The notes under the pieces were generated by a model that saw only the letters and a program-made list of their open reading frames with translations, ran no database searches and was not told the DNA's origin. From a virus (lineage: Duplodnaviria > Heunggongvirae > Uroviricota > Caudoviricetes): a stretch of 64,000 nt of DNA. The stretch's first letter is position 1. Each line of letters opens with the position of its first letter. The stretch is from the IMG/VR virus record IMGVR_UViG_2700989507_000006; one strand, given 5' to 3'. Shown in pieces: positions 51,730 to 62,348 of the stretch. Made by a program: the position numbers and the translations under genes.

Positions 51730-53205
51730 TTACACCTGTGCGACGTTATACCATGTGCCATTGATGTATTTTTGTATTGGCCTGAATACTGCGGGGTCAT
51801 CACCATCGACTTCACCGACAATACCAAGCCCGGTAATTACGTGCCCTGCTTTCTCATACATCACCCCTTTCTGCATAGTCTGGACAACACGTGTGCCAAG
51901 TCTGATATCTCTCACATAGCGGGAATCAAAGTTACCGTAATCCGAGGGATTAACACGCCCCGTAATATTTATGGTCTTATTACTTTGAATGCTTCCGGAA
52001 ACAAAGCGCATAACATGGACGTTATTAGCATAAACATCCAGATTACCATCGCCATTTTGTTTAAATCCGGTGTCGTTATCACCAAGAACAATAGAGTTCC
52101 CACCCAACGCGTTATTCGTGCCAAGTGCCAGCCCGCCATCAATCCTGGCACCATTACCAACAGACACAACTCCTGTTCTTAAGTTGATGCCGAATGGCCT
52201 TAATGGCCCAATATCTCCATTTTCACCCTCATTTTCTCGTGTAGGGATGATATACAGGTTTTCTTCAGAACGGCGAAAAATAGCACCAAAAGATGAATTA
52301 AATATCCTCAGTGCATTGACTGTAGATATTTTTACTTCACTGCTGAAAAGGGCTTTAACAAGAACATACAGAGCATCCCATTTAAGATTCATCAGATCTT
52401 TTGTTGTGGTGCTCTGACGACTTCTCCATTTGAAATATTCATTGCCGTTGTCACCTGTTTCAAACCACATGTATGAATCAGTGTCACCATCGGCATCATT
52501 TTTAAATCCAATCTTCGCCCAGTCAGTATTTCGAATCCAGGCAAGGATTGAGTCGTTTTCAAAAGTAAGTCCGCCGGACAAGATATCGCCTGAACGCTGA
52601 ACGGCATTATTTGCTTTATTAATGAATTCCTGTAGATTTAAATCTTCCGCCGTTAGCTCAATGTTTTTAGAACCATCAAACGAGACACCGTTAATAGTAC
52701 GTGCTGTCTGCAATTTGGTCGCTGTAGCCGCATTACCAGAGGTGTCCTGATTCCCTTTGGTATTAACGCCGGGAACGGAATCTTTTGACGTATAGATCTG
52801 TGCCCATTCGGACCATGCCGCAGCAGTGCTATCTCTTTTGGATCGAATGAAAGCTGGTGCATGAGCGCCATTTGTGCCACTCCAGCCAATGAGCAACTCG
52901 CCTTCACCAGTGGATGCAGCTCCCTTCAGGTGAAGTACATTCCCGTAAGTCGTCGGATAACCATTGTTGTATGCCTCATACATCTGCAATCCAGTAGCAG
53001 CACCTTGCGTTGTACCGGTAAGCGCAGTAACGCGTCCTCTAGACGTAATTGTTGGTATCGAAATGTTCGTAGAACCATCGAATCTGACGCCATTAATGTT
53101 TATGGCTGTTTTTAATTTCGTCGCGGTGTCGGCGTTCCCTGTCAGCGCCCCGGTGATCCCGCCGTTGAAAGTCTGGCGTGCACTCCATGTGTTAGCCGTG
53201 CTCAA
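51730..53205 (-). CDS. Sv': alternative tail-fibre variable segment (promoterless until inversion)
   Basis: 491-aa ORF whose first ~200 aa are identical/near-identical to residues ~494-700 of S; no independent start context. Confidence 0.7.
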   Translation of the reverse strand: MSTANTWSARQTFNGGITGALTGNADTATKLKTAININGVRFDGSTNISIPTITSRGRVTALTGTTQGAATGLQMYEAYNNGYPTTYGNVLHLKGAASTGEGELLIGWSGTNGAHAPAFIRSKRDSTAAAWSEWAQIYTSKDSVPGVNTKGNQDTSGNAATATKLQTARTINGVSFDGSKNIELTAEDLNLQEFINKANNAVQRSGDILSGGLTFENDSILAWIRNTDWAKIGFKNDADGDTDSYMWFETGDNGNEYFKWRSRQSTTTKDLMNLKWDALYVLVKALFSSEVKISTVNALRIFNSSFGAIFRRSEENLYIIPTRENEGENGDIGPLRPFGINLRTGVVSVGNGARIDGGLALGTNNALGGNSIVLGDNDTGFKQNGDGNLDVYANNVHVMRFVSGSIQSNKTINITGRVNPSDYGNFDSRYVRDIRLGTRVVQTMQKGVMYEKAGHVITGLGIVGEVDGDDPAVFRPIQKYINGTWYNVAQV

Positions 53206-53215
53206 CAGGGGGATC

Positions 53216-53241
53216 TTTTCACCGCTGGTACCGAGTTCTCT
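53216..53241. other. invertase crossover site (cix-type, right)
   Basis: ttctcttaaacc-aa-ggtttaggattg; lies between Sv' and cin. Confidence 0.6.
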
Positions 53242-53252
53242 TAAACCAAGGT

Positions 53253-53813
53253 TTAGGATTGAAATGACGACGCCGGAAACTTCTTATAAAGCGTGGAAAC
53301 AGCCACATCATAGATGATTGCAACCTGCTTACGGGGGATGCCATTCTCCAGCAATCGCCGCATTTGCTGCCATGTTTCTTCTTGGTATTTAGGCCGACGC
53401 CCACCTATACGACCTTCTGCGCGAGCTGCATCAAGTCCAGCGCGTGTACGTTCAACGATAAGCTCACGTTCCATTTCTGCCAGCGCCCCCATTACGTGAA
53501 AGAAAAAGCGCCCCATTGGTGTACTGGTGTCGATAGAGTCAGTGAGACTCCGGAAATTAATTCCTCTGTCACGCAGCTCTTCCACCAGCACAACCAAGTG
53601 ACGCATGCTGCGCCCAAGACGATCTAACTTCCATACGACCAGGGTGTCACCTCTGGAAAGCATACGCAAAACCTTTTTTAGCCCAGGGCGTTCAGTCTTT
53701 TTGCCGCTCGCCTTATCCTCAAAAATTAGCTCACATCCTGCGCTTTCAAGGGCATTTCGTTGCAAAGCAGTGTTTTGTTCATTTGTTGATACGCGTACAT
53801 AGCCGATCAGCAT
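53253..53813 (-). CDS. cin: serine recombinase, DNA invertase (Hin/Gin/Cin family)
   Basis: 186 aa; MLIGYVRVSTNEQ catalytic serine motif, C-terminal HTH; adjacent to cix sites. Confidence 0.9.
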   Translation of the reverse strand: MLIGYVRVSTNEQNTALQRNALESAGCELIFEDKASGKKTERPGLKKVLRMLSRGDTLVVWKLDRLGRSMRHLVVLVEELRDRGINFRSLTDSIDTSTPMGRFFFHVMGALAEMERELIVERTRAGLDAARAEGRIGGRRPKYQEETWQQMRRLLENGIPRKQVAIIYDVAVSTLYKKFPASSFQS

Positions 53814-54279: not shown

Positions 54280-54609
54280 GTGCTTGACACACAGGAATTA
54301 GCTCCAGTTGCTATTGCGCTCCTGCTTTCAGTAATTGGTGGGATAGGCACGTTCCTGATGGATGTCCGAGACGGTCGCCAGTCTGGCAATTTGTTGGGAT
54401 TGGTTACGGAGATCTTTGTTGCAGTGACAGCTGGCGCGGTGGCGTACCTATTGGGGCAACACGAGGGCTGGGAGTTATCAATTACGTACTTAATGGTAAC
54501 GATAGCCAGCAATAACGGTCATGAGGTGATTTCAGGGATGAAACGAGTGAATATCGATAGCATTCTGAATGTTCTTACAAGTTTGGTGAAAAAGGGAGGT
54601 GGGAAATGA
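54280..54609 (+). CDS. lydA: holin-like membrane protein
   Basis: 109 aa, GTG start after AGGAGG; two to three hydrophobic helices and charged C-terminus. Confidence 0.55.
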   Translation: MLDTQELAPVAIALLLSVIGGIGTFLMDVRDGRQSGNLLGLVTEIFVAVTAGAVAYLLGQHEGWELSITYLMVTIASNNGHEVISGMKRVNIDSILNVLTSLVKKGGGK

Positions 54610-55049
54610 TTGGCTGGGGTGTATGCGTTCTTGCGTTAGCCTTAGCCGATCGCTATTTGCTAAAACGCAAGGACATCACGCATTTAGAACTTGGTGATGT
54701 GGAAATTAAACCGGGTTTCATCCGGGTGCCGTTCAAGTACCGGTCTAAATTCCCGTTTTTGCGCGGCGCAACGGTCAGATATTGGATCCGCGATGTTCAG
54801 AAGCCGACGACAGTGATTGAAGGTGAACAACGTTGTCTGACGTCGGCTGAACAGGGCGAAAACAGTGAATGGTTGTACATACCCACTGAATATATGGGTA
54901 AAGGAGAGCGACTGTGGCATTTCAACGTCATGGTTACGCATGGCGACTCGTTCATTAACCCGTTGTATCGGATTTTCCCTGTTACTCAGCAAATCCGCAG
55001 AAGTTACGTAATAAATCTCGCACAGGATGTGTCAGATGACGAAAAATAA
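54606..55049 (+). CDS. lydB: antiholin-like protein
   Basis: 147-aa ORF overlapping lydA stop by 4 nt; N-terminal hydrophobic segment. Confidence 0.5.
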   Translation: MIGWGVCVLALALADRYLLKRKDITHLELGDVEIKPGFIRVPFKYRSKFPFLRGATVRYWIRDVQKPTTVIEGEQRCLTSAEQGENSEWLYIPTEYMGKGERLWHFNVMVTHGDSFINPLYRIFPVTQQIRRSYVINLAQDVSDDEK

Positions 55050-55638
55050 GTATGCAACGGTCGATTTTGACCAGGTTAATGAAAAGGGGCTGAAATCCCT
55101 TATCGCGGCGATCAATAAAACCGGTGTTACGGTAATTGAGGTTGACTCCAGCAACCGCGCAACAACGAAAGATGGCGTTAAAGTTAAAACCGCAAAGCTG
55201 GTTCTTAACGACGGACAAATTCTTGCCATACAGGTAAACGATACTGGCGATATATCGTCTGTGAAACTGAATGGAAAAGCTATTCCTAACGCTCAGTCGC
55301 CGGATATCAAGACGCTTGGTACCGTCATGGGACAGGCGGCCCGCAAAAACTCCGCAAAATTCCAGAAATCACTGATCGCCAAAGCGAAGCGTGTTGCCAA
55401 TCCGGTAGACAAGAAACCGGCAGTTAAATCCAACTTTCAGCGCCTGCAAGAAGCAAAACAGCGGAATGCTCAGGTGGTTGCCGCTTATAAGTCCGCGCAG
55501 AATTCGGTGTCTTTCAATCAACAGCAGATCACTGATTTGCGGGCGAAGCTGGATAAGGAGACGGGCCGACTCAATAACGAAAAGGCACGGAATGGCGAAC
55601 TCAAACGTCGTCTTAAGCAACTGAAAGCAGGAAATTAA
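55036..55638 (+). CDS. hdf: coiled-coil protein sharing a motif with DarA (homologue of DarA fragment)
   Basis: ATG 55036 (track ORF from 55027); ARKNSAKFQK matches EKNSAKFQR in the downstream 639-aa protein. Confidence 0.5.
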   Translation: MTKNKYATVDFDQVNEKGLKSLIAAINKTGVTVIEVDSSNRATTKDGVKVKTAKLVLNDGQILAIQVNDTGDISSVKLNGKAIPNAQSPDIKTLGTVMGQAARKNSAKFQKSLIAKAKRVANPVDKKPAVKSNFQRLQEAKQRNAQVVAAYKSAQNSVSFNQQQITDLRAKLDKETGRLNNEKARNGELKRRLKQLKAGN

Positions 55639-55639
55639 C

Positions 55640-57559
55640 ATGGAACAGTTCAATATCAATAAAGGGGTGACGATCAAGCCTGGGCTTGACGTGCTTCCCC
55701 CGCCAGTGACTGATGATGAATATCGCGCATTAATGGCCGGTGAGGACCGCTATCTGATGACGGAATCCAACACCCTGGAGGAAATCGAGGCTACGTTCTT
55801 CTATGACACGCCGATCCACTGGTGTGCTACGGATTTATTGGAGGCGATTAGTTCTACTCGTTTGCAGTTACACCGGACCATGCAGGCATTTGTCCGGGCA
55901 TTGAACCAGAAGCTGAATGGTACCGGAATCTCTGCGGGGAGTGATAAAACGGGGGATGTGGCCCAGAGCGGCGCGCGCGCGATCGGCGGCGCTGAAATTG
56001 GCCGGGCACGTAACGTTAACGGGCTGCCAGTCCTGCCAGCCATTATTCCGCTCAGTGATGGTCAGACTATCAGTATTCTGTTTCATAGCCCGACAGCGGA
56101 AAACCGGATCACCAATAGCGATACGCTGGTTGCTTTCCAGTTCTTACTGAATAAAAAAGACGTTACTCACACCGTTGCTCCGATGAGTGGACGTGATATG
56201 ACGCTGGCGCAGGTCACCATGAAACTTGCCAACCTTGCAGAGAAAAACTCGGCAAAATTCCAGCGTGCGCAGAAGAAGAAAAAAGCCCTTGTTGATGAAA
56301 TAACCCAACTACAGGCTGACAGTGACCAGAAAGAGGATGCCATGAGCGACCTCGCGGATCAGGTGGCAGCGGTAGAAGGGCAGAAGGCAGATCTGGAGCA
56401 GAAAATTAACGCTGTTGCATCGGAAGCGGATTCTCTTTATGAAGAGAATGAGCGTTTGCAGACGGAGATTGATCAGCTCAATCGCACTGGTGGGCGCGAT
56501 ACCATTGCTCCAGCGGGGATGACTGGTGGGCACTCTCGCGCGCTGACGGATCGCCTTGCCAGTATCAAAAATCGTATGCATATGGACGGGGAAGTGACGC
56601 TCAGTAATGGTGCATCAATGAAGCAATTCATTGGGGGCGGCGAAGGGTATATCCAGTTAACCGATCCGGATGGCAGCGTATACATGATCAAGGCTAAATC
56701 CATACAGGGTGTGGACATGGCAGATGCGATCGGCAAGCTGTTTAAAGCCTATAAAGCGGGTAATGTATCGGAATACCTGGTCCAACCAGAAGAACATAAA
56801 CCGGAAAACGTCGAACCTGAACCAGCGGAGGATACCGGTAGCTCTTCGCCTGAACCAGAAGTCTCTGTAGGTGCATATCGATATGCCCTGCAAATGCGTC
56901 CGGCGGCCCCTGGCGCAATACCTGAAGGTAACAAAGCAATTCTGCCGCGCCCTGATGAAGGTGACCCGTATTATGAATATGCACGCTACGGCATTGCTAC
57001 TTACGATACCCCGCTTTCTGATCAGCAAATGAGTGAGTACGACCTGAAGTTATTGCCTCGCGAGGATTCTTTCGACTTCCTGGCGAAGACACTTACTAAT
57101 GGTCCGTTTGGCAAATATGCACAAAAAGCTCTGGAGCTGGCCACCAGCTCACCAGACGAGTTCCGCGTAATGCTGAAAACTCAGTTTCAAAAAACTTTCC
57201 CCAATATTGCGTTTCCTGGGGGCGCTGGCACCGAGAAAATGGTGCAGAGCATGATCAATGCATTGCAGGCCGAAGTCGGTGAGATTACTCAGCCAGAACC
57301 GGCCCCGGCACAGCCTGATGAAACGGTTAGCGAAGCAGATGCAGAGGCTAATAAAGCCATTGAATATCTCAATAACGTGATGGATATACAAAGCACTGAC
57401 ATGGCGGAGATCCGTAACGCCCGGGGCAATGTCCGGGAAGCGATTGCAGCCCTTCAGGCTGCCGGACGTTTTGAGGAAAACGAAGAGCTGGTTAACGGCG
57501 CAGCTCGCCACCTGGCTGATCTGCTGGTAGCAATCCAGAAAGCGGGGGTAGCGGCATGA
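55640..57559 (+). CDS. darA: head-packaged antirestriction protein DarA-type
   Basis: 639-aa ORF in operon after holin/antiholin and hdf; coiled-coil middle, Pro/Glu-rich linker; size matches P1 DarA as remembered. Confidence 0.6.
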   Translation: MEQFNINKGVTIKPGLDVLPPPVTDDEYRALMAGEDRYLMTESNTLEEIEATFFYDTPIHWCATDLLEAISSTRLQLHRTMQAFVRALNQKLNGTGISAGSDKTGDVAQSGARAIGGAEIGRARNVNGLPVLPAIIPLSDGQTISILFHSPTAENRITNSDTLVAFQFLLNKKDVTHTVAPMSGRDMTLAQVTMKLANLAEKNSAKFQRAQKKKKALVDEITQLQADSDQKEDAMSDLADQVAAVEGQKADLEQKINAVASEADSLYEENERLQTEIDQLNRTGGRDTIAPAGMTGGHSRALTDRLASIKNRMHMDGEVTLSNGASMKQFIGGGEGYIQLTDPDGSVYMIKAKSIQGVDMADAIGKLFKAYKAGNVSEYLVQPEEHKPENVEPEPAEDTGSSSPEPEVSVGAYRYALQMRPAAPGAIPEGNKAILPRPDEGDPYYEYARYGIATYDTPLSDQQMSEYDLKLLPREDSFDFLAKTLTNGPFGKYAQKALELATSSPDEFRVMLKTQFQKTFPNIAFPGGAGTEKMVQSMINALQAEVGEITQPEPAPAQPDETVSEADAEANKAIEYLNNVMDIQSTDMAEIRNARGNVREAIAALQAAGRFEENEELVNGAARHLADLLVAIQKAGVAA

Positions 57560-57921
57560 CACTATCAGCTATTGAGTTAATGGACCTCAGCGACAAGTTG
57601 GATTCTCTGATGTCCAAAGCTGCTACCGCGAGTGGCATGGAGTTGTTGGATATCAGCGATGAAATTGACCAGATCATGCAACAGATGGGGTACGGCGCGT
57701 CCGGCGGCGGTAGTGGTGAGGAAAAACAACCTTCGGTACATGATGGTGTGCCAAAACTGGTTGCTGATTTCCTGGCTGATAAATTCGTCGATCAGAGCAC
57801 CGATGCATTTATCGGTACGTTGCAGGACTTGAGTCAATATGTTGGCACATACATCGATCTGGACCAGGTTAAACAACACACGGCGGCATGGATAGCCGCC
57901 AACATTAAAGAGGCAGCATAA
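57556..57921 (+). CDS. small acidic protein in dar operon
   Basis: 121-aa ORF, 4-nt overlap with upstream gene, GGGSG linker. Confidence 0.45.
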   Translation: MTLSAIELMDLSDKLDSLMSKAATASGMELLDISDEIDQIMQQMGYGASGGGSGEEKQPSVHDGVPKLVADFLADKFVDQSTDAFIGTLQDLSQYVGTYIDLDQVKQHTAAWIAANIKEAA

Positions 57922-57933
57922 GGCGTAACAGGG

Positions 57934-60921
57934 ATGAGCTTAAGCGATCAGGTGGTGATGGCCACCAGCATAGAAACGCTGATCGAGCTGCTAAAAAACC
58001 TGCCCGATTACGGGCGGGTTTCGTATGTGGTGACAGCGAAGGGAGACGAGGTAAAAACAGCGTTTGATATCGTCGATGCCTCAACTCTTTTGGTATCCAA
58101 TACTCTGGACGGGAAAATTAATCCGGACTATCCCCAGGAACTTCAGCCGCGCGACCGGACCCGCGCATCCAGCCTTCTTCAGGTTAACCAGATATCCAAG
58201 GATTTGCGGCCTGCTCAGCTTACCGATTCCGGTCTATCCAGCCATGGCGCGCCGATAATTGGTGAGGACAATGCCGTTGAGTCAGGTAATGGACGGACCA
58301 TGGGGATCATTAAAGCCTATCAGGACGGCAATGCGGATCGGTATCGGGAGTACCTGATTGAACATGCGAGCGAATTCGGCATACGTCCTGAAAAGGTTGA
58401 ATCAATGACGGCTCCGGTACTGGTGCGCCGCCGGTTAACTAAGGTTGACCGCGTTCAGTTTGCCAAAGACTCAAATATTTCTGATCTTCAGGAAATGGCA
58501 GCCAGTGAAAAGGCTTTTGTTGATGCCGACAGCATAACACCGGCGATGATGGCGCTGTTTAATCCGTCAGAAAGCGGAGATCTGCTTAGCCGCAGTAATG
58601 ACGCGTTTATTCGCGGATTCATGACGCAAGTTGGTGCCACACAGGCTGCTGGCCTTGTAACGGAAGATGGGCGACCAACGCGGCAACTTGTTGACCGTAT
58701 ACAAAACGCGATCTTTGCCAAGGCATATAAGGATGCGCGCCTGGTAAGGATGGTTGCAGAAGAACCTGATCCGGATATGCGTAATGTTCTGACGGCGCTT
58801 AATGCGGCGGCCAATGATTTTGTACAGATGCAGGCTTTATCAGGAGAAGCGCACAAGCAGGCTGTGACAACTATCGTTGATGGTATTGAAACAGCGGATA
58901 GCCTCGATAAAAAGGCGCTGGCGGCATTGAAAGATGCGGTAGACCTGGTAAGGCAATCGAAGGAGTCAGGCCAACATATTACCGATGTTATTGCTCAGGG
59001 GGATATGTTCAGCGAAACGGCCCCGGAAGTGAAAGCACTCGCGTTGTTTATCGTCGCGAATAACCGTAGCGCGAAGCGTATGGCCACCGCCTTTAAGTTG
59101 ATGGCGCAACGTATCAATGATGAGTTACAGCACCAGGGCCAGGCGCTCGGGGATATGTTTGGCGGCGGTGATGTGTCGTTACAGGATATCCTTCGCCAGG
59201 TGTCTCAGGAACTGGAAAACGAAGGCATGCAAGGGATATCCGGCGGTCTTTTCGAGTCCGTTTCCGGCGGTAGTTACAACGGCGTTGCTCCATATACCAG
59301 TTTGCTATTACATCGGGCATCCGGCACCAAAGACATTATTCATCTGATCAGGCTGCTTTCCCGTACAGATCCCCAGGATGAACAGCTTGTTCAAGTGCTT
59401 GCGCATTTTGTTCGAATGCCTGTTGCCGACGTGAAAAAATGGTGCCGATTATTCGGTATCAGCAATTCGTTACTTCGCGGCTTGTTAAATCACGCATCCT
59501 CCCTTGGGCGCGATGGCTTTGACGAGATAGCGCAGGCGATAAAAAACGGAGATATGCCACCAGCTATTGACTGGTTTTCCATTCGCCCAACCAGGGTGAA
59601 AGCATTCCTTAGCGCGGCGCAATCAGCATCACCATTGGCAGAAATGGTTCAGAGGTTATCGCTCATATTCACAGACCATACCGCGTTGGGTGATCTGACT
59701 CTGGACGAGATGAAGGAAGCCTCCATTCAGTGGGCCGATCAACAAAATGAGGTTAACTCAGACTTCTTGCCAGCATTCAGGAAGGCCGTTAGTAAAGCGG
59801 ATGATGCCCGTGGAATTCTGAAGGCATTTAAGGCATTGCAAAGTCGTGTTAATAAACATGTCGGTGATATCGATGGGGTAACGGCGGAAGGCCGGGATAT
59901 CCTTAAAGAGCACGGCATAACGCCAGAGTTTATTGATGAGATCAGGACTGATATGCAGCGTGAGGTCGTATCGTCCCTGCAAATCGTAGCCAGAGCGTTG
60001 GCGGATGCTAATCCGAAGAGTGCGGCCATTGTTAACCGTGTTATTGGTGATATTGAAGCATCGGAGGGCATGGGGGCGCTGAAACTCTTCCTTTCGCGAG
60101 CGTTTAATCCTAACGGCAATATTCTCCCCAGCATTATTGGTGAGGCTAAAAAGCATGTCAGTGAAGAAGAACTTGAGCTGCTTAACCAGCTACTCAATCG
60201 ATTTTCATATATCCCGCAGAAACGCTGGCAAATGAATCAGCGAAGTATGGATTCGGTCTACGAGAAAGTGTTATCTGCCATGAACAGTGCGATCGCCAAC
60301 TCATCTGTATCAGAAGAAAAAGCTCTTGAGTGGGCCGACTCTTTTATCACGGAAGAAGTGGAAGAAGCCCGCGCTGGACAGAATGGTGGAATAGACTTGC
60401 GCAAGGAACTTGCTGATATTTATCGCCTGACCGGCGGGAAAATATCAACCTTATCAAGGGTAATTCACCACAAGGGTAGGGCGTATGCAAATCTTAATGG
60501 TGTTGTTGCTGTCGATTTGCACGATGAAAATGCAAATGCACTGTGGCACGAGCTGGGTCATCATCTTGAGTACAGTAACCCGGGGTTGTTAGAGAAAGCC
60601 AGGTCATTCCTGAAGGCCAATGTTGAAGGGGATAAGCCATCTTTCGTTAATATCGGTGGGCGTGGCAAGCCTGAATGGTGCTTCAGATCTCGATTGAGTG
60701 ATATTTATATGGCGAAGGTATACCCGCCAGCCTCAGTAAGTAACACCGGGAAAATTCGGCAGAAATCACCGACTATTTCCAAAACGTCAGCAACGGAAGT
60801 ATTCTCTATGGCTCTTCAGTTGTATCATGACAAAGAGGCCGCTGCCGCATCACTGATGAATGGTGACGGATTGCTGGAACTGTTATTAGGTGTGGCAAAG
60901 GAGCTAAATAATGCAGATTAA
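57934..60921 (+). CDS. large dar-operon protein with C-terminal HExxH zinc-metallopeptidase-like motif
   Basis: 995 aa; LWHELGHHLEYSNPG at 60547-60564 region; otherwise helical with no other recognised motif. Confidence 0.5.
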   Translation: MSLSDQVVMATSIETLIELLKNLPDYGRVSYVVTAKGDEVKTAFDIVDASTLLVSNTLDGKINPDYPQELQPRDRTRASSLLQVNQISKDLRPAQLTDSGLSSHGAPIIGEDNAVESGNGRTMGIIKAYQDGNADRYREYLIEHASEFGIRPEKVESMTAPVLVRRRLTKVDRVQFAKDSNISDLQEMAASEKAFVDADSITPAMMALFNPSESGDLLSRSNDAFIRGFMTQVGATQAAGLVTEDGRPTRQLVDRIQNAIFAKAYKDARLVRMVAEEPDPDMRNVLTALNAAANDFVQMQALSGEAHKQAVTTIVDGIETADSLDKKALAALKDAVDLVRQSKESGQHITDVIAQGDMFSETAPEVKALALFIVANNRSAKRMATAFKLMAQRINDELQHQGQALGDMFGGGDVSLQDILRQVSQELENEGMQGISGGLFESVSGGSYNGVAPYTSLLLHRASGTKDIIHLIRLLSRTDPQDEQLVQVLAHFVRMPVADVKKWCRLFGISNSLLRGLLNHASSLGRDGFDEIAQAIKNGDMPPAIDWFSIRPTRVKAFLSAAQSASPLAEMVQRLSLIFTDHTALGDLTLDEMKEASIQWADQQNEVNSDFLPAFRKAVSKADDARGILKAFKALQSRVNKHVGDIDGVTAEGRDILKEHGITPEFIDEIRTDMQREVVSSLQIVARALADANPKSAAIVNRVIGDIEASEGMGALKLFLSRAFNPNGNILPSIIGEAKKHVSEEELELLNQLLNRFSYIPQKRWQMNQRSMDSVYEKVLSAMNSAIANSSVSEEKALEWADSFITEEVEEARAGQNGGIDLRKELADIYRLTGGKISTLSRVIHHKGRAYANLNGVVAVDLHDENANALWHELGHHLEYSNPGLLEKARSFLKANVEGDKPSFVNIGGRGKPEWCFRSRLSDIYMAKVYPPASVSNTGKIRQKSPTISKTSATEVFSMALQLYHDKEAAAASLMNGDGLLELLLGVAKELNNAD

Positions 60922-61222
60922 AATCGCAGCGCCATTAGGCGGAGATGCCATTATCGAATTTGATGATAATGAAGAAGTTTCCGGGCGTTTAAGCATTATC
61001 TCCGGTGACATTACCGAGGACATGATCGCTGAAGCCATAGTTGGGGCAAATCCCAATAGCTATATGGGATTCGTTAATACCCTTGATGCTCCCGCAAGTG
61101 ATGTTCTCCGAACGCTGCATCTTTACGCTGGCTGGTTTGTTGATTGGCCAGCAGTAGATGGTGGTGATGAGGACGACGACGACGATGATTTTGGTGATCA
61201 TGTAGACCAGATCGTATATTGA
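60911..61222 (+). CDS. small protein with poly-Asp C-terminal tail
   Basis: 103 aa ending DGGDEDDDDDDFGDHVDQIVY; last gene before terminator. Confidence 0.4.
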   Translation: MQIKIAAPLGGDAIIEFDDNEEVSGRLSIISGDITEDMIAEAIVGANPNSYMGFVNTLDAPASDVLRTLHLYAGWFVDWPAVDGGDEDDDDDDFGDHVDQIVY

Positions 61223-61224
61223 AG

Positions 61225-61251
61225 AAATCCCGCCAATCGGCGGGATTTTTA
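61225..61251. terminator. bidirectional intrinsic terminator
   Basis: aaatcccgccaatcggcgggattt stem-loop then ttttt; convergent operons meet here. Confidence 0.55.
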
Positions 61252-61253
61252 CC

Positions 61254-62348
61254 TCACGAGAAGCTCTTTTCTGATGTCAGCCAACAGTGCTCGTGCAAAT
61301 CTCTTGGTGGTTTTTCGACAAATGCCTCTTCAGCTACATCCCGCCAGGGAATTTGTTTAGCCCATTCAGCTATAGCGTTATGGTTTGCTGAGAATAACGG
61401 TATTGTATAGGCTTTCAGCCAGTCTAATGTGCTGGAGTTGTGTTTTTGAGCGTGATGTTTCGCATGGTGTTTGGCGATCACGATCGTAGGCACTACCCAT
61501 TTACTACCGTCAGTCATTGTGAAGTGCATATTACGGGGAACAGATGATTTTTCCATCAACTCCCGAATCCCAGGGAATTTCCCCAAGATCAATCGGCGAT
61601 ATTTATCGCTATTGCACCCACCAAACTCTTTGGCTTTATATTCAAGATATGCTTCAGAAACGAGAGGTGAATCCTCTGTGCTGAGAGTTATAGCCGTGAA
61701 AATACCAGCAGGATTGTTCTCACTATGGGCCAACCGGTGATGCGAATCATAAAAATACCCTTTCTCTCGTTCCGATGGTTTCGACAGCAACAGCAGGCGC
61801 GAATCATAACCGGTCAAATTGCCTGTTATCACAGCATGAGCGCGGTCGCTGATTTCTGCCGCGTTAATAACGATGAAGAGATCATGCGGCCCAGTAAAAC
61901 CAGCCAGAGATTCTTCGTTATTCAGACAATAGTTTAAATATACACATCCCCATGCTTCACTGATATGTACCAACCCTTTTTCAGGGTGCAGTTTGAAATG
62001 ATTGCCAAGAAAAGGGTGTTTCTTGATAACCTGCGCCCAATAACAGCACATATAGTCAATTATATTGTTTCGACTATCGTTAATAGCAGGAGAAACAACC
62101 ACTGTACGGGAACACGAATACAGTATTGTTTGCAGGATGCTAATCACTGCCACAATAGAGGTTTCCCCAATACCATGTGGTGTGGTGGCAGTGACTTTGG
62201 CTCCGGTGTTCTTTATCGCGTTAATAATTTTTGCTTGATGAGGTGTTAACTTAATATCAAGCAACTCTTTTGCTGCCAGTTCCCAATTGTCTTTATACCG
62301 TTCTATCAGTGCTAACCAGGCAGATTCATTCTGTATACGATTAATCAC
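61254..62348 (-). CDS. hypothetical protein
   Basis: 364-aa ORF, last gene of ssb operon; Cys/His-rich; no confident family. Confidence 0.5.
   Translation of the reverse strand: MINRIQNESAWLALIERYKDNWELAAKELLDIKLTPHQAKIINAIKNTGAKVTATTPHGIGETSIVAVISILQTILYSCSRTVVVSPAINDSRNNIIDYMCCYWAQVIKKHPFLGNHFKLHPEKGLVHISEAWGCVYLNYCLNNEESLAGFTGPHDLFIVINAAEISDRAHAVITGNLTGYDSRLLLLSKPSEREKGYFYDSHHRLAHSENNPAGIFTAITLSTEDSPLVSEAYLEYKAKEFGGCNSDKYRRLILGKFPGIRELMEKSSVPRNMHFTMTDGSKWVVPTIVIAKHHAKHHAQKHNSSTLDWLKAYTIPLFSANHNAIAEWAKQIPWRDVAEEAFVEKPPRDLHEHCWLTSEKSFS

Follow-up and report, generated by a model that had tools for sequence, protein, structure and literature searches.

A zincin-like metallopeptidase domain with a conserved HExxH motif at the C-terminus of a P1-type DdrB protein

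A 64,000-nucleotide (nt) stretch of viral DNA (IMG/VR record IMGVR_UViG_2700989507_000006; this whole stretch is referred to as the window) contains an open frame at 57934–60921 (+) that starts with ATG and encodes a protein of 995 amino acids (aa) and 108.9 kDa, with the short zinc-metallopeptidase signature HExxH near its C-terminus. The question raised by this locus is whether the motif marks a genuine peptidase and, if so, what such an activity would do in this protein. The gene belongs to a P1-like plasmid prophage and is its ddrB, encoding the orthologue of phage P1 DdrB. With megablast, the full gene has 96.9–97.6% nt identity to sequences in 19 Punavirus records, including those of P1, P7, RCS47, SJ46 and JL22, and the protein is identical to P1 DdrB at 965 of its 995 positions (97%), with none of the 30 differences falling at a conserved catalytic position. 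The P1 (P1_gp022, YP_006491.1), P7 (Prt) and JL22 orthologues are the same gene as here, with the same operon position and motif. DdrB is non-essential and counts among six Dar proteins that become part of the head and leave it together with the DNA; it belongs to the classic P1 Dar system, the model case of virion-delivered anti-restriction.

The HExxH motif and the conserved residues of the predicted active site

The first-pass annotation placed the motif correctly near the C-terminus, at nt 60547–60564, a range that covers HELGHH. The HExxH itself is HELGH (aa 872–876, nt 60547–60561), within the segment LWHELGHHLEYSNPG (aa 870–884, nt 60541–60585). The His and Glu composition of DdrB predicts 0.026 chance matches to HExxH in the protein, and the one that it carries is the single occurrence in the window among the 20,702 aa of six-frame translation that lie in stop-free stretches of 150 aa or longer.

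A word-indexed homologue search with the C-terminal domain returned close relatives only, whereas an exhaustive HMMER search with aa 761–995 identified 359 proteins at E≤1e-3, and 154 of their sequences were retrieved. The HExxH motif is present in 152 of the 154; the other two, one of them a 134-aa fragment, align only downstream of it. The motif is thus conserved in homologues. In a 45-sequence alignment that extends down to 24% identity, six residues are invariant (H872, E873, H876, Y925, Y930 and E955), and nine more are at least 90% conserved (G835, R849, A852, H877, E879, E914, T954, S958 and G986). Alignments made independently for full-length DdrB-like proteins and for 72 homologues of diverse architecture recover the same conserved set.

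These residues fall into three segments on the + strand. The first (60547–60561) is H872-E873-L-G-H876, followed by the near-invariant H877 and E879, and is predicted to supply two metal ligands and the catalytic base. The second (60706–60723) contains Y925, K928 and Y930, of which the two tyrosines are invariant and K928 is present in 140 of the 154 homologues. The third, T954-E955-V-F-S958 (60793–60807), is a predicted ‘glutamate helix’ in which E955 is conserved in 153/154, T954 in 139/154 and S958 in 147/154. The signature Exx(A,F,T,S,G) of such a helix marks the third metal ligand of gluzincins (PMC7213743), and E955-V-F-S958 both fits this signature and lies at the start of a helix in the structural model, so that E955 is a plausible third zinc ligand, for which the first-pass annotation had proposed to look downstream. 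Between Y930 and E955 the spacing is 5–7 residues in 102 of 151 homologues, and P1-type proteins have an insertion of ~19 residues there.

Fold, structural relatives and domain map

We modelled aa 761–995 with AlphaFold2 using the 45-sequence alignment, obtaining a predicted local distance difference test (pLDDT) score of 91.8 and a predicted template modelling (pTM) score of 0.89. In the model, N-terminal helices are followed by short β-strands, the HExxH helix (868–881), a second helix, a β-rich insert and a helix starting from T954-E955. The HExxH helix thus comes after a small β-sheet, and the features of a gluzincin are found together: a conserved HExxH on an α-helix, a Glu within Exx(A,F,T,S,G), and a zincin fold with a sheet and an N-terminal helix before the active-site helix. 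The motif therefore lies in a zincin-like fold rather than in one foreign to metalloproteases, and we have little doubt that the fold is a true zincin fold.

The closest solved structures are PPEP-3 (9g0j; score 8.0), PPEP-2 (6fpc; 7.4), the lethal-factor-like domain of Certhrax (7.0), MtfA (3dl1; 6.7) and anthrax lethal factor (6.7); M32 and M1 peptidases, Wss1, thermolysin, botulinum light chain and IrrE all score lower than 6.7, and ArdC (6sna) scores 3.9. The confident model thus adds the detail that the solved structures nearest to the domain are those of lethal-factor-like and MtfA-type gluzincins, and not ArdC or Spartan. The resemblance to the M34 Pro-Pro endopeptidases and MtfA (M90) nevertheless has its limits: sequence identity is only 11–16%, P1-type DdrB has its ~19 inserted residues between Tyr and Glu ligand, and the M34 and M90 enzymes are secreted or cytoplasmic bacterial proteins whereas DdrB is a phage head protein.

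Sequence-level searches gave little. Pfam returned no family for aa 761–995 even at E≤10, and no peptidase family above threshold for the whole of DdrB (E≤1) or for the sets of 72 and 45 homologues; the Pfam-modelled MPTase-PolyVal clade did not match at either of these settings, and neither ATLF (M34) nor M90 matched DdrB. Single-sequence and profile searches of the PDB gave nothing significant, for M34 and M90 proteins included, a botulinum-like toxin at E 0.52 being aligned at the HExxH only; a Foldseek search of the PDB had no match, and a BFVD search found uncharacterised phage proteins and one MuF protein only. The sub-threshold Pfam matches among the homologues are mostly zincins (Reprolysin_2 to 5, Zincin_1, Peptidase_M91 and eCIS_core). 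This shortage of significant matches to curated peptidase models, solved-structure sequences and PDB folds is what a chance HExxH, or a degenerate pseudo-peptidase without catalytic function, would have in its favour. We consider that explanation highly improbable; the motif is functional in type and not a chance match, because the residues are invariant, because the motif is present in 152/154 homologues, because AlphaFold places it on a helix, and because E955 fits the glutamate helix. The C-terminal domain is a divergent zincin that as yet has no Pfam model, and the proposal that the protein has a zinc-metallopeptidase domain is supported by conservation, fold and a plausible third ligand.

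On sequence and model, the last ~230 residues of DdrB constitute a divergent gluzincin, the metallopeptidase (MPTase) common in polyvalent proteins of phages and plasmids. The metal would be held by H872 and H876 on the active-site helix and by E955 on the later helix, E873 would serve as the general base, and Y930 would probably stabilise the transition state, giving a full proposed catalytic set of H872, E873, H876, Y930 and E955; H877, E879, E914, R849 and Y925 are further conserved residues that may line the pocket.

The description of the protein as otherwise helical did not hold. We mapped its domains using a full-length structure model (pLDDT 79) and a column-identity profile of 44 DdrB-like proteins. 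The N-terminal module (aa 1–431, 57934–59226 (+), column identity 0.66–0.91) comprises a DdrB-like domain of the ParB/sulfiredoxin superfamily (aa 36–167, 58039–58434 (+); PF18763, E 2.5e-39), in a region that is α/β in the full-length model (aa 28–170), and a helical extension (173–431). A Gly/Ser-rich linker follows, GISGGLFESVSGGSYNG (aa 432–449, 59227–59280 (+)), which is predicted to be disordered (pLDDT <50), and then an all-helical and poorly conserved middle domain (aa 453–756, 59290–60201 (+), column identity 0.23–0.38). The zincin-like metallopeptidase domain occupies aa ~769–995 (60238–60918 (+), column identity 0.41–0.65) and is itself α/β with several β-strands, such that only aa ~173–431 and 453–756 are all-helical. 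The map thus adds a hypervariable helical middle between two conserved modules, and this middle domain may be evolving rapidly and serve as a module for specificity or interactions.

Two observations concern the variable part of the protein. The middle stretch 59284–60258 (aa 451–775) is modelled with good confidence despite its low conservation. Differences from P1 are concentrated in 60034–60633 (aa 701–900), a fifth of the gene that holds 36 of the 87 nt and 18 of the 30 aa differences and takes in the end of the variable helical domain together with the N-terminal half of the peptidase domain, with the catalytic residues unchanged; this cluster could be a recombination patch or could reflect diversifying selection.

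Proposed processing in the head and alternative roles

A peptidase function for DdrB had been anticipated. In the RefSeq entry for P1, which goes back to the genome paper of 2004, ddrB is listed as ‘unknown protein function; possible metallopeptidase’, the P7 record names the gene prt (‘putative protease’), the JL22 record has ‘putative metallopeptidase’, and Lenart 2013 cites the family. The C-terminal MPTase domain of DdrB was formally identified by Iyer, Burroughs, Anand, de Souza and Aravind (2017; PMC5512222) in their description of the zincin-like MPTase domains of polyvalent proteins, for which DdrB is an example of their own. They proposed that DdrB undergoes autoproteolysis with retention of the N-terminal ParB fragment and, alternatively, that such MPTase domains act on host proteins. 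The two roles suggested in the first-pass annotation, autoprocessing and attack on host defence, are these same two and, because both coincide with published hypotheses, the finding is a known one: the literature and GenBank annotations already cover the motif, the assignment of the domain and the two proposed functions, and the finding is correct but not new.

DdrB shares with the polyvalent MPTases a C-terminal HExxH with a downstream Glu, a junction to an effector-type domain (DdrB-ParB) and delivery in the virion (PMC5512222). The DdrB-ParB and peptidase domains are in one polypeptide here, and homologues are fused to MuF, InPase or ddrB-ParB domains. E879, which is acidic and lies three residues beyond the motif, matches a feature described for a widespread phage-type clade, although the conserved His at the end of strand 2 is not evident in DdrB, where R849 is conserved in that region instead (PMC5512222).

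The reading that we favour is that DdrB contains an active gluzincin whose main job is processing during head assembly, and to this reading as a whole we give an even chance. Taken separately, catalytic activity of the domain is probable, judging from the sequence and the model, and assembly or self-processing as its main role falls somewhat short of an even chance. The peptidase would act in head assembly to cut DdrB and possibly partner Dar proteins as well. A second-hand account in Iyer et al. (PMC5512222) has DdrB cut to ~76 kDa before packaging, and this virion form may correspond to the conserved, ParB-containing N-terminal part (~aa 1–695), with the peptidase module left behind or discarded after the cut. 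By fragment mass, an N-terminal product of 76 kDa implies a cut around aa 690–700, at ~695, which would lie upstream of the peptidase domain and within a break between the predicted helices 664–689 and 694–709. In line with a role in assembly, DdrB is a head protein required for the addition of DarB. Processing is favoured in part because the 76-kDa form can be explained by loss of a C-terminal piece containing the peptidase.

In an alternative scenario, either full-length DdrB or a peptidase-containing fragment of it is injected with the DNA, and its targets for cleavage are proteins of host defence, for instance subunits of type I restriction systems. The Dar proteins do enter the host with the DNA, DdrB has been linked in a second-hand account to protection against EcoB/EcoK, Iyer et al. 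list such a role among the possibilities for polyvalent-protein MPTases (PMC5512222), and the closest solved folds include secreted and toxin peptidases (lethal factor and the PPEPs). Dar protection, however, operates in cis only, such that co-packaged DNA is protected and co-infecting dar- phages are still restricted, which is hard to square with a freely diffusing enzyme that would eliminate the restriction pool of the host, and processing is favoured over attack on host enzymes for this reason. If the ~76-kDa form given second-hand arises by C-terminal loss, the ~33 kDa removed would be enough for the whole peptidase domain, and Gonzales et al. assign DdrB a different role, in that it ‘aids DarB addition to capsid’.

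The ArdC protein of plasmid R388 (PDB 6SNA; PMC7213743), functionally the nearest analogue of DdrB, bears on this scenario from both sides. It is antirestriction, acts against type I restriction and, like DdrB, joins a nucleic-acid-binding N-terminal domain to a C-terminal gluzincin with HExxH and Glu (PMC7213743), so that here too antirestriction goes with a metallopeptidase domain; the pairing of an ArdC-N single-stranded DNA-binding domain with a Spartan/IrrE-like peptidase domain that defines ArdC-type proteins was not found in DdrB. The metal-ligand mutant E229A in the ArdC peptidase domain nevertheless retains antirestriction (PMC7213743), and this is a further reason to favour processing over attack on host enzymes. 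Overall we consider an injected effector protease unlikely. A more constrained version is more improbable still: the peptidase would remain attached to or associated with the ParB-like DNA-binding module, be injected with it and, tethered to DNA in the manner of Spartan and Wss1, cleave only those type I restriction complexes that have engaged incoming P1 DNA. If true, this would account for the strictly cis-acting protection, and DdrB would be an anti-restriction effector that works by proteolysis, for which no phage precedent has yet been demonstrated.

Several points weigh against self-processing by the DdrB peptidase. We found no biochemical or genetic test of the DdrB peptidase residues in the searchable literature. 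The presence of DdrB in the head is confirmed by a virion proteome (39 peptides, 59.5% coverage; Gonzales et al.), but this coverage fits retention of either end of the protein, and the supplement gives no peptide positions. P1 moreover has its own prohead protease, Pro, which could be the processor of DdrB; its one known cleavage site, after E120 of the major capsid protein, gives no usable consensus for comparison with DdrB.

The last of these points leads to another alternative, that Pro generates the 76-kDa form while the DdrB peptidase has other Dar proteins as its substrates in trans, or else serves non-proteolytically as a scaffold for recruitment of DarB or Ulx. Consistent with this, Pro is a T4-gp21-like protease that virions contain and whose cut in the capsid protein follows a Glu, DarA is annotated in P1 as proteolytically processed in head maturation, and related peptidase domains occur in ParB-less proteins encoded beside DarA_N proteins. 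However, the whole catalytic set is invariant in distant homologues, which argues for catalysis rather than a scaffold, and the data assign no Dar cleavage to either protease. We regard this alternative as doubtful, if slightly less so than an injected effector.

The same peptidase clade recurs in other virion-linked settings, both in fusions to MuF head-morphogenesis, ddrB-ParB or InPase domains and as the neighbour of a DarA_N protein, a distribution that fits a general role of the clade in the handling of packaged polyvalent proteins. One distant family member is a 625-aa protein encoded on the metagenomic phage contig SRR9182847_86721 (L004:4986-14221), which has the peptidase domain mid-protein and no ParB domain. 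Its gene is flanked by those for a 1001-aa InPase-DarA_N protein and a 1448-aa LPD1 polyvalent protein, so that a phage without relationship to P1 also has a Dar-like gene cluster. In a P1-like element (GCA_000307305.1; L006:6610-8774), ddrB appears to be split into genes for a 425-aa ParB protein and a 257-aa peptidase protein, an arrangement that had suggested action in trans. We did not use this case, because the peptidase frame is open upstream across an A7 run by the stop of the first open reading frame (ORF) and a frameshift or an error in sequencing is the more likely cause of the apparent split.

The dar operon and its surroundings

The gene order at this locus, lydA-lydB-hdf-darA-ddrA-ddrB-hxr, is that of P1, as expected of a P1 orthologue. 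The lydA (54280–54609) and lydB (54606–55049) genes are followed by hdf (55027–55638 (+); Pfam DarA_N, PHROG Hdf-like), darA (55640–57559 (+); Pfam DarA_N and DarA_C) and ddrA (57556–57921 (+); PHROG DdrA-like), and ddrB (57934–60921 (+)) was assigned from its ORF and the megablast matches to P1 ddrB. The protein of 995 aa had been described as lying downstream of the DarA-type gene; both the length and the relative position stand, although the two genes are not directly adjacent, since ddrA intervenes. At the other end, ddrB overlaps by 11 nt with hxr (60911–61222 (+)), which encodes an Xre-like putative repressor (PHROG 2292, P1 annotation). Within ddrB there is an antisense ORF of 122 aa (58488–58856 (-)) without a Pfam match, at the position of P1 iddB (‘internal to ddrB’).

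To the 3' side of hxr the window differs from P1 in lacking the isaB/IS1 segment, and IS1 sequence is absent from the whole window. In its place, 61221–62324 is ~1.1 kb unrelated to P1 and holds a 364-aa ORF (61254–62348 (-)) without a Pfam match, whereas P7 and JL22 have a porin gene at this spot; P1 homology starts again at 62325, with isaA and then ssb. Upstream of the operon, a resolvase-type invertase gene (53253–53813 (-)) at the position of P1 Cin adjoins a tail-fibre segment (51730–53205 (-)), and this 51730–53813 region, just upstream of the dar operon, is the neighbourhood expected for the P1 invertible C-segment.

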